A program made the position numbers and the translations under genes. A model generated the notes under the pieces. The model saw only the letters and a program-made list of their open reading frames with translations, ran no database searches and was not told the DNA's origin. Source: a virus (taxonomy: Duplodnaviria > Heunggongvirae > Uroviricota > Caudoviricetes). From it: 64,000 nucleotides of DNA. Location of the stretch: the IMG/VR virus record IMGVR_UViG_2667528037_000002, positions 1 to 64,000 of that record. The stretch is one strand, 5' to 3'. Positions 1-26,359 of the stretch are shown here, piece by piece; the stretch's first letter is position 1, and every line of letters starts with the position of its first letter.

Positions 1-38
1 TCAGAAGGTTAGGGGTTCGAATCCCTTCGGGCGCACCA
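1..38 (+). tRNA. Partial tRNA, 3' portion only (window starts mid-gene): T-arm AGGGG-TTCGAAT-CCCTT, acceptor 3' strand CGGGCGC, discriminator A, CCA. Likely attachment-site core.
   Basis: GGTTCGAATCC T-loop motif, 7-nt acceptor strand plus ACCA read directly. 5' half lies outside the window. Confidence 0.6.
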
Positions 39-303
39 CAGACGGCCCGTCGCCCTCGGGAGGCTGCTCACCTTCGCCCTCGGCTAACCAACTGACTGGG
101 ACACCGCAGGCGAGTGCCCAGGCGTTTAGGACAATCTTCTTGGGGACGGTCCGGCCCTTTTCGCAATTGCCAATTACCGACCGGCCGACGCCCATCATTT
201 CGGCCAGTTGCCTTTGATCTAGTTGGGCTTCTTCCCGTGCGATCTGTAGGCGGTATCGCAGACGCATTGGGGGGATAGTCCCGGTTTCGTATGCAACGGT
301 CAT
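1..303 (-). CDS. XRE-family HTH immunity repressor-like protein. C-terminus is encoded antisense to the tRNA 3' end and the stop codon (pos 1-3) lies inside the tRNA. Alternative upstream starts at 405 or 417.
   Basis: ORF 1..417(-). HTH motif QRQLAEMMGVGRSVIGNCEKGRTVP. The Met at 303 leaves a 120-bp divergent operator region. Stop TGA is the complement of tca at 1-3. Confidence 0.6.
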   Translation of the reverse strand: MTVAYETGTIPPMRLRYRLQIAREEAQLDQRQLAEMMGVGRSVIGNCEKGRTVPKKIVLNAWALACGVPVSWLAEGEGEQPPEGDGPSVVRPKGFEPLTF

Positions 304-462
304 ATGCGCATGGTATGCGCGTACGCGCACGCTCGCAAGGTGGTGCAAATTGACCCGATCCGCAAACACCCCCTGATTGCTACTAAAGCCCAATAAGTTC
401 CCCATCTGCGAAAACATCTATAGATGCGCTTGCGCGCACTATGCGAATATGCGCAAGATGGG
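288..462. promoter_or_regulatory. Divergent promoter/operator region between repressor and cro/xis-like gene. Repeated TATGCG(C/A)A half-sites plus palindromes ATGCGCAT and GCGCGTACGCGC.
   Basis: Repeats read at ~302, 313, 438, 446. Perfect palindromes at ~304-311 and ~318-329. AT-richer than surrounding sequence. Confidence 0.5.
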
Positions 463-699
463 CGTATGGCCGCACCAACCGCTGAGACACCCGAGCAGCC
501 AGACGAGATCACCGTCACCAAGGCCGCGACTACATACAACGTCTCCAAACGGACCCTCCAGGCACTCGCCGTGTCCGGCCGCATCCCTGCACGATTGGTC
601 GGCAAGACCTACCTGCTCGACCACCAGGCAGTCCGCCTATACGCACAGGCGCGCCAGGCCACCCGCGACCTCAACGACTACGCCCAGGCCGCGTCATGA
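424..699 (+). CDS. Cro/excisionase-like HTH DNA-binding protein (MerR/Xis-type HTH_17). Alternative start 466.
   Basis: ORF track. Motif TYNVSKRTLQALAVSGRIPARLVGKTYLLD. Divergent from repressor. Confidence 0.55.
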   Translation: MRLRALCEYAQDGRMAAPTAETPEQPDEITVTKAATTYNVSKRTLQALAVSGRIPARLVGKTYLLDHQAVRLYAQARQATRDLNDYAQAAS

Positions 700-1610
700 G
701 CACCGTCGCAGCCACCGCCATGTCCCCGTCGGCCGCCCGTGACCTCACCGAGCGCATCCGCACCACCATTGACCGCACCTGGGACCTCATCGCGAAGGCA
801 TACACCGACCGCGCCTGGGCAGTCCTCGGATACCCGACCTGGGACGTCTACTGCGAACGCGAGTTCGGGTCCACCTGGTTCAAGCTGCCCCGCGAGACCC
901 GCGGCGAGGTAGTGCAGTCCCTGCGCGACCTCGGCCTGTCCACGCGCGCCATCGGCTCCGCGATAGGGGTCGATGACCGCACCGTCCGCCGCGACCTGTC
1001 AGGCGCGGCATCTGCCGCACCTGCGGCTGTCATGGGCACCGACGGCAAGACGTACGCGTCTACCCAGCCTGTCCGCCCTCACCTGGCCGTCGTGCCAGAC
1101 CTCCCCACAACCGAAGACCACCCGGAGACCGCCCCGATGTGCGAAGGCGGGACGGCCTCCGGGGTTCCACTGACCCCGTCGCTACTTATCTCCGGCGACG
1201 GGTACTCAGTCGTGCACAACGCACCCGTGACCGACGGCGTAGAGCCGACCCTCACCTCGTTCGCCATGTGCCCCTGCGGTGCCCGAGCTGAGCTGTACGA
1301 CAACGCCACCCAAGAAGATCGCGAACGCTTCGACGAGTTCGACGACATCCACCGCTACTGCGACGACCCGACAGAACCTGTCGCGGCAGAACCGGAACCC
1401 GAGCCAGCGCCAGCCCCAGCGCGCCGGAAACCGATCACAGACTCCTTCGACGACGCCACCACGGCAGTCACGAAGGCGGTGAAGCGGGTAGAGGCACTGG
1501 CGGCCGACGACCGCTTCGACAAGAACGCGGACCAACTCGCCCTACGCAAGAGCGACCTGGTCCGCGCACGAGACGCGCTGCAACGCGTCATCGAGAAGTT
1601 CCCCTCGTAA
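696..1610 (+). CDS. Hypothetical protein with central HTH-like segment (LRDLGLSTRAIGSAIGVDDRTVRRDL)
   Basis: ORF track. ATGA overlap with upstream gene. Confidence 0.5.
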   Translation: MSTVAATAMSPSAARDLTERIRTTIDRTWDLIAKAYTDRAWAVLGYPTWDVYCEREFGSTWFKLPRETRGEVVQSLRDLGLSTRAIGSAIGVDDRTVRRDLSGAASAAPAAVMGTDGKTYASTQPVRPHLAVVPDLPTTEDHPETAPMCEGGTASGVPLTPSLLISGDGYSVVHNAPVTDGVEPTLTSFAMCPCGARAELYDNATQEDRERFDEFDDIHRYCDDPTEPVAAEPEPEPAPAPARRKPITDSFDDATTAVTKAVKRVEALAADDRFDKNADQLALRKSDLVRARDALQRVIEKFPS

Positions 1611-1630
1611 CCACAACAAGGAGTTGCTTC

Positions 1631-2494
1631 ATGTCGAATGCTATACCGCTGCACCGGCCACCGGCCATCACGACGGACATCGAAACCATCGACGGCCCGA
1701 CCGCCGACGCGTACCTCAAGTTCAACACCCACAACCGCCCCCTCAACGAGCGCAAGGTCATCCAGCTGGCCGCCGACATGGAGGCAGGCCGTTGGCAGAT
1801 GAACGGCGAGGCAATCAAATTCGATACCGAGGGCGCCCTGCTGGACGGCCAGCACCGCCTACACGCCGTCTCCTTGTGCGGTGTGTCCATCGACTCGGTC
1901 GTAGTCCGCAACCTGCCGCCCGAAACCCAGATCACCATGGATCAGGGCACCAAACGGTCACCCAGCGACCAACTCAACCTGTCCGGTATCACCGCCTCCA
2001 AGTCTGATGCGTCGGCCGTCAAGACGCTGATCATCTGGGAACGTGGCTGGTTCTACACCGACCGCGCCACAGGCTCCGTCACCAGCGCCGAAATCGTCGA
2101 ATGGACCCTCGCCAACCCCGACACCTTTGAGTTGATCAGGCGCGGTACCCACTACACGCGCATCAAGGCACGCCGCGGACTCATCATGGCCGTCTACGCG
2201 GGCATCGGACGCATCCACGGTGTCGAGGTCACCTCCGAATTCTTTCAACGCACCCTCGACGGCGTCGGACTCGAAATCGGCTCGCCAATCCTTGCACTGC
2301 GCAACAGGTTCGACCGCGTTCGTGGCGAGGGCTTCAAGATGCCCGACGCCGAGGCAATCGGCTACTTCGTCGCCGCCTTCAACCACTGGCTATCCGACCA
2401 CCACGTGGCCCGGTTGCAGCAGCCCAAGGGAGGCTGGAATAAGACCAACTTCCCGCAGCTCGTAGGCGCACCAGCACAGGAAGTACTCCGGTGA
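1631..2494 (+). CDS. ParB-like nuclease domain protein (DGQHRLHA motif)
   Basis: ORF track. RBS aaggag 8 nt upstream. ParB N-terminal domain signature LLDGQHRLHA. Confidence 0.7.
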   Translation: MSNAIPLHRPPAITTDIETIDGPTADAYLKFNTHNRPLNERKVIQLAADMEAGRWQMNGEAIKFDTEGALLDGQHRLHAVSLCGVSIDSVVVRNLPPETQITMDQGTKRSPSDQLNLSGITASKSDASAVKTLIIWERGWFYTDRATGSVTSAEIVEWTLANPDTFELIRRGTHYTRIKARRGLIMAVYAGIGRIHGVEVTSEFFQRTLDGVGLEIGSPILALRNRFDRVRGEGFKMPDAEAIGYFVAAFNHWLSDHHVARLQQPKGGWNKTNFPQLVGAPAQEVLR

Positions 2495-2536
2495 TCCGCG
2501 AGGTAGTCGTCCCCGTGTTCTGGATGCTCCTGTTCG

Positions 2537-2947
2537 GTGCCTTCGTTGGCGTCGTCCTCACGGTCAACGTCATGGCCGCCCGGTGATGACATGGCGCGCA
2601 TCCACCAACGACCCGAGTTGCCAATGCATCTCACGGACATCACCGGCGACCAAACCGTGGCCGACGCTGCGCGCCTGCTATCCCTCGACCCGGCAATCGC
2701 CGTCGGCCGCGACCAACTCTTCGACGCTATGGCCCGCGAGGAATGGATATTCCGCGGCCGTGACCACCGCTGGATCGCCTACGCCGAATCCGTAACCCTC
2801 GGCTACCTGGCACTCCACGACGGAGGCGAATACCAAACGCCCGCAGGACAAACCAAAGAACGTCCCAAACAGATCTACCTAACCCCTAACGGTGTCGCGG
2901 AAATGCACTACCGCCTCGGCGGCAGCCAACAACTAGCACTGACCTGA
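2537..2947 (+). CDS. Hypothetical protein (start uncertain; alt 2590)
   Basis: ORF track, protein-like composition. Confidence 0.4.
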   Translation: MPSLASSSRSTSWPPGDDMARIHQRPELPMHLTDITGDQTVADAARLLSLDPAIAVGRDQLFDAMAREEWIFRGRDHRWIAYAESVTLGYLALHDGGEYQTPAGQTKERPKQIYLTPNGVAEMHYRLGGSQQLALT

Positions 2948-3124
2948 TCAACCACTCACTCAGCACAAGGAGACAGCTATGCCCGTACGAGAATCCAAGT
3001 GGTGGCGCCGCGCCCTATTCGGTGTCCAACCGACACCGCCACCGACGCCCCCAAGTCCCAACCCAATCTGGGACGAGCTGGCCGCCAAGCACGGCAGCCC
3101 CGCCGAAATCTGGGGTGCAGCAGC

Positions 3125-26189: not shown

Positions 26190-26220
26190 CCCCCAGGCCA
26201 CAACTACATAGACACCAGAT

Positions 26221-26359
26221 GGTGCGAGCAGGACGCAGGTCGGTTACCACTTGTAATGGAGAGGTCGCGGGTTCGAGTCCCGCCAGCCAGCCCCCGGCTG
26301 TAGCTCAGTTGGCAGAGCGCTAAACCCCGGTCAGCACACACACGTTCGCCCCATCACCC
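26221..26359 (+). ncRNA. Y-RNA-like (YrlA-type) unit 1 with permuted tRNA-like module: T-arm GCGGGTTCGAGTCCCGC, closed acceptor-like hairpin CAGCC-agccccc-GGCTG, D-arm TAGCTCAGTTGGCAGAGCG
   Basis: Canonical T-loop and D-loop sequences in T-then-D order with hairpin-closed acceptor stem. No anticodon arm. Flanked by conserved 5' and 3' motifs. Confidence 0.5.

Follow-up and report, generated by a model that had tools for sequence, protein, structure and literature searches.

Integration-dependent immunity is a genetic switch in which integration of a temperate phage changes the form of its own repressor. The founding study (ref. 13 in Villanueva et al. 2015, PMC4557955) concerned phage BPs. 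In BPs, the repressor gp33 has a 103-amino acid (aa) prophage form, which is stable and represses the promoter P_R, and a 136-aa viral form, which is inactive by virtue of a C-terminal proteolysis signal (PMC4557955). A phage attachment site (attP) within the repressor gene has likewise been described for six clusters, MabK among them (Dedrick et al. 2021, mBio, PMC8092301). In MabK, the stop codon ends with the first bacterial base, and the direction of transcription of a transfer RNA (tRNA) is toward the truncated repressor; several of the viral repressors across these clusters end in -AA (PMC8092301). The MabK prophages prophiGD43A-5 and prophiT37-1 encode a tyrosine integrase and occupy the bacterial attachment site attB-1 (PMC8092301 Table 1; PMC9934374), a site that overlaps a tRNA gene at its 3′ end (PMC8092301, PMC9934374). 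Here, we examine the repressor gene at the very start of a 64,000-nucleotide (nt) stretch of viral DNA, positions 1 to 64,000 of IMG/VR record IMGVR_UViG_2667528037_000002 (the window). We hold with high confidence that the window starts at the left attachment junction (attL) of a prophage of cluster MabK, integrated in Mycobacterium abscessus and equipped with a BPs-type integration-dependent immunity switch. An initial annotation, made from the sequence of the window alone, had proposed this type of architecture for its left end.

The window derives from an M. abscessus contig (GCA_001216145.1, CSXT01000010.1). The reverse complement of one section of this contig (L003) is identical to the window at all of the bases that the two share (10417/10417). 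On the source contig, ARAGORN identified a 76-nt tRNA-Arg(ACG) gene at L003 10380-10455 (minus strand), corresponding to window positions -37 to 38. The first 38 nt of this gene (the 5′ half) immediately precede the window, within host DNA, and its 3′ 38 nt (tRNA positions 39-76) form window positions 1-38 on the plus strand (TCAGAAGGTTAGGGGTTCGAATCCCTTCGGGCGCACCA), comprising the end of the anticodon stem, the variable loop, the T-arm, the acceptor 3′ strand, and CCA. The reading of the window's opening bases as the last 38 nt of a tRNA was therefore correct. Sequence upstream of position 1, which the initial annotation had named as the means of telling a host tRNA from a phage-encoded one, proved to be host DNA: past the 5′ half of tRNA-Arg come tRNA-Ser(GCT), an aminotransferase gene, a TED-domain gene, and other ordinary or metabolic host genes. 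The attL common core, taken as the longest identical run between the two attachment junctions of the same contig, is 37 bp long and spans window positions 2-38 (CAGAAGGTTAGGGGTTCGAATCCCTTCGGGCGCACCA). Identity between the left and right junctions begins at position 2; at position 1, T in the host stands against C in the phage P arm.

The tRNA segment is also read in the opposite direction. A minus-strand open reading frame (ORF) at 1-417 (138 aa) crosses it antisense as VRPKGFEPLTF and terminates at a TGA (1-3, minus strand) opposite tRNA positions 39-41. The product matches the Pfam families HTH_3 (2.6e-10) and Phage_CI_repr (1.1e-4), as well as HTH_31 and HTH_19, in agreement with the proposed XRE-type repressor running antisense through a tRNA to a stop at these positions. 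Only the TG of this stop codon comes from the core. The final A, which is the T at window position 1 on the plus strand, is the first host-specific base outside it. The junction codon consequently specifies Trp (TGG) once the phage is excised and a stop (TGA) in the prophage.

The 138-aa version of the gene, present in RefSeq as WP_217256992.1, is probably over-extended. The most likely start is the ATG at 301-303 rather than that at 417, because in-frame stops lie upstream of the equivalent Met in prophiGD43A-5 and because Bipper gp51 and BPs gp33 begin at the equivalent Met; the longer version would add 38 codons. With this predicted start, the prophage-form immunity repressor (HTH_3/XRE-type) would span 1-303 on the minus strand and consist of 100 aa plus the stop, with the core as codons 90-100, and the control region would therefore cover approximately 304-465. 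Its assignment as a repressor rests on the Pfam matches and on homology to BPs gp33 (49.6% identity, E=4e-24) and Bipper gp51 (62% identity). Automatic annotation of the gene is inconsistent: database versions measure 138, 100-101, 99, and 88-89 aa, with 138, 100, and 88 aa represented in RefSeq.

No second copy of the core was found within the 64-kb window. The right end of the prophage was examined on a further section of the same contig (L033, CSXT01000010.1 77918-91102), where a window-frame coordinate equals the L033 position plus 66,205. Here, a second core copy, constituting the right junction (attR), lies at L033 8791-8827 (window-frame 74,996-75,032) and matches window positions 2-38 at 37 of 37 bases, which answers the expectation of a second copy at the other genome end. 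When the segment L033 8685-8792 is joined through a single core copy to the window from position 2 onward, the repressor frame is extended by 35 codons. The resulting tail (WSVVRNPLTCIDTEPTDLVAHRSRRRAAELEADAA) ends in -EADAA, followed by a stop. The reconstructed attP junction would read ...GAACTACTGAC-CAGAAGG...CACCA-CAGACGG with the 135-codon frame open. Comparison of the virion and prophage C-termini, another check that had been suggested, thus gives a 135-aa tagged repressor in the excised phage versus a 100-aa tail-less repressor in the prophage. By its sequence, the -EADAA terminus resembles an ssrA-like -AA degradation signal; relatives end in -TAAA or -DAA.

The same end of the prophage encodes the integrase that the initial annotation, having noticed none in the 64 kb, had suggested might lie there. 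A 334-aa tyrosine integrase (PF00589) is located at L033 7556-8560 (minus strand), with 230 bp between it and the core; it shares 61% identity with BPs gp32. It begins 124 nt past the stop of the viral-form repressor on the same strand, so that the viral gene order is int, repressor 3′ end, core, repressor 5′ part, control region, and excise. Within the window, no Phage_integrase, Resolvase, or Recombinase appears among the Pfam families (25 at most) listed for the 41 ORFs of at least 250 aa, and tblastn of the 64 kb with four tyrosine integrases returned no match with an E value below 0.15. Both junctions with their core copies are established, as are the gene order, the reading frames, and the homologies, and the proposal that integration alters the repressor C-terminus is supported by the two lengths, 100 versus 135 aa, and by the homology to BPs gp33.

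These features suggest a mechanism modeled on that of BPs. In the free phage, as reconstructed, attP lies inside the repressor gene, which encodes in order the helix-turn-helix (HTH) domain, the antisense tRNA-Arg core VRPKGFEPLTF, and the 35-residue tail ending in -EADAA, with int 124 nt downstream on the same strand. After infection, the tagged long repressor and Int would both be made from the leftward promoter. Int would recombine attP with the host's tRNA-Arg(ACG) gene at its 3′ end, the tRNA being restored from phage DNA. The tail-coding segment and int would thereby be shifted 75 kb away to attR, off the leftward promoter, and the host T set beside the core would convert TGG (Trp) into TGA, yielding the 100-aa tail-less repressor. 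This stable form would build up in the integrated state and repress the rightward, divergent early lytic promoter. Where integration does not take place, the long viral form would be degraded via its ssrA-like C-terminus and lytic growth would ensue, such that immunity would arise only after integration.

Conservation of the tail was surveyed across 20 loci that contain a mycobacterial prophage right end and an integrase of the same family. The tail is in frame and conserved (VRNPLTC.DT.PTDL...), ending in -AAA or -DAA, at 18 of these 20 loci, and the viral-form tail of the window's prophage is identical to that of prophiGD43A-5. Conservation of this ORF at the protein level across diverged relatives argues for selection on the tail. 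In prophiT37-1 and FVGK01000023.1 (L022), the tail is out of frame because of a 1-nt deletion, one C at the boundary of P arm and core (CCTAA/CAGAAGG versus CCTAAC/CAGAAGG). The deletion was read from the prophiT37-1 junction (record 76159-76210; L002 14160-14211) and the FVGK01000023.1 junction (L022 1-60) in comparison with L018-L021, L023, and L024. The GenBank record of prophiT37-1 nevertheless contains a misc_feature for a split repressor (76069..76210 plus 1..392, 534 nt in total). Its frame is open only when neither of the two 37-nt core copies is removed, with the core translated twice, in two frames. The prophiT37-1 case is either a variant that naturally lacks the tag or an artefact of annotation, and the GenBank feature would merit correction if the latter holds. 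A viral repressor for the window's prophage was also rebuilt with the right end of prophiT37-1, giving a 1-aa extension; this version was rejected given that the prophage has its own attR.

Several observations weigh against a BPs-type switch in this prophage. With a single core copy, the viral repressors of prophiT37-1 and FVGK01000023.1 end in ...TFC and a stop, and so exceed the prophage form by a single residue. The attP polymerase chain reaction (PCR) of prophiT37-1 is strongly positive in cultures and supernatants (PMC9934374 Table 3) despite the deletion, and the tail is therefore perhaps dispensable for excision and release. The integrase of the window's prophage ends in ...DQLPPLYPGS and has no -AA degradation tag, which BPs-type systems typically possess. 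MabK integrases without a tag have already been noted (PMC8092301), however, and such a tag is treated here as a non-defining feature of BPs-type systems. A scan of window positions 1-800 for a sigma-70 consensus promoter and terminators returned none. Since mycobacterial promoters match the sigma-70 consensus poorly, this result is weak evidence. Finally, differential stability of the two repressor forms, operator binding, inducibility, and the decision logic are carried over by analogy from the BPs experiments.

Some of these observations would suit an ordinary tRNA-integrating prophage whose repressor merely ends at attL and whose immunity is independent of integration. The one-residue extension in prophiT37-1 and FVGK01000023.1 and the untagged MabK integrase both fit such a prophage. 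On the window's own contig, however, the repressor frame stays open through the P arm for 35 further residues, the last of them -EADAA, the tail is conserved as protein (VRNPLTC.DT.PTDL...AA) across diverged relatives in a manner that argues for selection, and the family is orthologous to that of BPs, in which the length difference is functionally decisive; we therefore regard integration-independent immunity as highly improbable. Even less probability, close to none, attaches to the reading in which the phage itself encodes the tRNA or its genome is not integrated, so that tRNA and repressor would overlap through compact packing, with the same stop in every form. The window by itself, lacking both an integrase and a second core copy, could be taken that way, and the phage does encode a tRNA of its own, tRNA-Thr(TGT). 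This reading is refuted by the host flank, where the 5′ half of tRNA-Arg sits in host DNA beside the tRNA-Ser, aminotransferase, and TED-domain genes, and by the second 37-bp core with its adjacent integrase 75 kb downstream on the same contig. In prophage-free genomes, moreover, either these host genes or an integrated island (see below) directly adjoin the same tRNA. What the initial annotation had offered as grounds for abandoning its proposal thus turned out otherwise: the tRNA belongs to the host, the stop differs between the two forms, and the genome is integrated between two core copies. It is also conceivable that the architecture is intact but belongs to a decaying remnant, the switch being a fossil of integration-dependent immunity, and the tandem arrangement with another element at the same tRNA could indeed complicate excision. 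The repressor, the full-length 334-aa integrase, excise, and the structural and lysis genes all appear as intact ORFs, though, and the close relative prophiT37-1 gives the strong attP PCR signals cited above, which makes decay unlikely. An integrated MabK prophage with a BPs-type switch remains the interpretation that we favor.

The putative regulatory elements lie in the divergent control region (304-465), which separates the repressor from an excise/cro-like gene and is marked by repeats, palindromes, and conserved blocks. The repeats and palindromes that the initial annotation had reported there are real, and its 12-mer lies inside a perfect 14-bp palindrome, TGCGCGTACGCGCA, at 316-329. The motif TATGCGCA has two exact copies in all 64 kb, at 303-310 and 448-455, with near copies at 314-321 and 440-447. 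Two 8-bp palindromes, ATGCGCAT (304-311) and TGCGCGCA (431-438), are also present. Blocks adjoining each start codon (approximately 299-330 and 427-457) are kept in prophiT37-1, prophiGD43A-5, and Bipper, whereas the spacer between them diverges. It is plausible that the two 8-bp palindromes, the 14-bp palindrome, and TATGCGAATATGCGCA (440-455) serve as operators, and they are put forward as candidates from their sequence and position. Across this region lies a divergent 77-aa HTH_17 gene (466-699, plus strand; Pfam HTH_17, 8.6e-7), which corresponds to a gene call on the source contig (L003 9719-9952). It is labeled "excise" in prophiT37-1 and prophiGD43A-5 and sits where BPs has cro (gp34).

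A number of further features of the prophage and its site were recorded. At attR junctions free of the island described below (L018 and L020), the host flank past the core reads GCGCAC/TCATCC. The native M. abscessus tRNA-Arg(ACG) gene is therefore without a full CCA, and it is the phage-supplied 3′ end (window 36-38) that encodes CCA. The phage-borne tRNA-Thr(TGT) is located mid-prophage at window positions 26215-26293 (plus strand); a published table lists one tRNA for prophiGD43A-5 and none for prophiT37-1. A Ro60/TROVE-domain protein is also phage-encoded, by one ORF of at least 250 aa within approximately 26.9-28.7 kb (Pfam matches to TROVE and Ro60 vWA); its counterpart in MabK relatives and in phage Phox is annotated as "Ro-like RNA binding protein". 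Outside the window, between the lysis genes and the integrase, a leftward cassette (L033 1631-4480, window-frame approximately 67.8-70.7 kb) contains a gene for a 732-aa protein and, after it, one for a GAD-like/T6SS_Tdi1_C protein. This is the counterpart of the polymorphic toxin-immunity cassettes that have been described for these prophages, and its content is not the same in the window's prophage, in prophiT37-1, and in other relatives.

A 9.6-kb island directly follows the attR core (L033 8828-13185, window-frame from approximately 75,033; full element at L041 1600-11254) and is bounded by the same tRNA-Arg 3′-end repeat. In this tandem arrangement, the core at the MabK attR thus serves the island as its attL as well. 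The island encodes a 387-aa tyrosine integrase, an HTH_3 protein, and an NLPC_P60 protein. Its integrase displays no BLASTP similarity to the MabK integrase and occurs on at least 300 M. abscessus contigs; the island stands without the prophage in four of the five places listed, and nothing in the phage collection matches it. One could speculate, at low probability, that the island represents a phage satellite, or else a competitor, sharing its attachment core with MabK phages, and that excision of one element or cross-recombination among the three cores could reshape the repressor 3′ end and hence immunity.

The main worth of this case lies in validation, in that an unusual genetic switch was inferred from 470 bases alone and the predictions held at the other end of the prophage. 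For the biology, it adds one more instance of a known system and no new principle. A practical consequence is that a repressor cloned as an immunity marker must be the 100-aa prophage form, a point also made in the discussion of PMC8092301.

Among described systems, the closest are the MabK prophages themselves. Over window positions 2-3000, nucleotide identity is 98% to prophiT37-1 and 92.9% to prophiGD43A-5; over positions 20,001-45,000, it is 95% and 93%, respectively, across 83-90% of the length; coverage ranges from 83 to 100% over all stretches compared. By these sequence comparisons, the window is identified as a cluster MabK M. abscessus prophage at attB-1. Both prophiGD43A-5 (MW584167) and prophiT37-1 (OQ417969) use the same tRNA-Arg attB, display the same core at the ends of their records, and share the left-end order of the window: repressor, excise, DNA-binding protein, ParB-like protein, and antirepressor. 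The architecture has already been published for MabK at attB-1 (PMC8092301; also PMC9934374, PLoS One 2023), and every point matches. The difference is that the window's prophage comes from a separate isolate (GCA_001216145.1) that the searched phage collection does not contain, and is a mosaic: its left end is closest to prophiT37-1, whereas its right end (a 98-aa HTH gene, the 334-aa integrase, and the P arm) is closest to and colinear with prophiGD43A-5, and its tail is in frame, unlike that of prophiT37-1.

The cluster G phage BPs, with the order int 32-rep 33-cro 34, is a more distant counterpart. Its repressor and integrase are homologous to those of the window's prophage, and its attP, as annotated, corresponds to this tRNA-Arg 3′ segment apart from two substitutions; the frame is also shared and gives VRP(K/E)GFEP(L/P)TF. 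The two repressor forms are similar in size (100/135 aa versus 103/136 aa in BPs), and in both phages a divergent HTH gene lies across a palindrome-bearing intergenic region. The tails, however, are unrelated, ending in -DKAS in BPs versus -EADAA here, and int overlaps the repressor end in BPs but is separated from it by a 124-nt gap in the window's prophage. The BPs operators are CGACATATGTCG (PMC4557955), whereas the candidate operators of the window's prophage are TGCGC-rich palindromes, and the neighboring gene is cro in BPs versus a gene annotated as excise in the relatives of the window's prophage. The phages also differ in size and host, the present one being approximately 75 kb and found in M. 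abscessus compared to 42 kb for BPs.

Mycobacterium phage Bipper and Gordonia phage UmaThurman have an identical 35-36 nt tRNA-Arg core within the annotated immunity repressor, in the same frame. Their repressor ORFs run 30-32 codons past the core, with a tyrosine integrase immediately downstream. As these are virion genomes, they show the uninterrupted repressor directly. The Bipper tail ends in -CDAA, but the tail sequences are unrelated, the N-terminal domain of the UmaThurman repressor aligns poorly with those of the other repressors, and the phage clusters and hosts are different. Conventional tRNA-integrating temperate phages likewise employ a tyrosine integrase and a core that coincides with a tRNA 3′ end, the tRNA being rebuilt from phage DNA at attL. 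In those phages, int adjoins attP and the repressor gene lies intact elsewhere, whereas in the prophage described here the crossover falls within the repressor ORF, and integration edits the protein.

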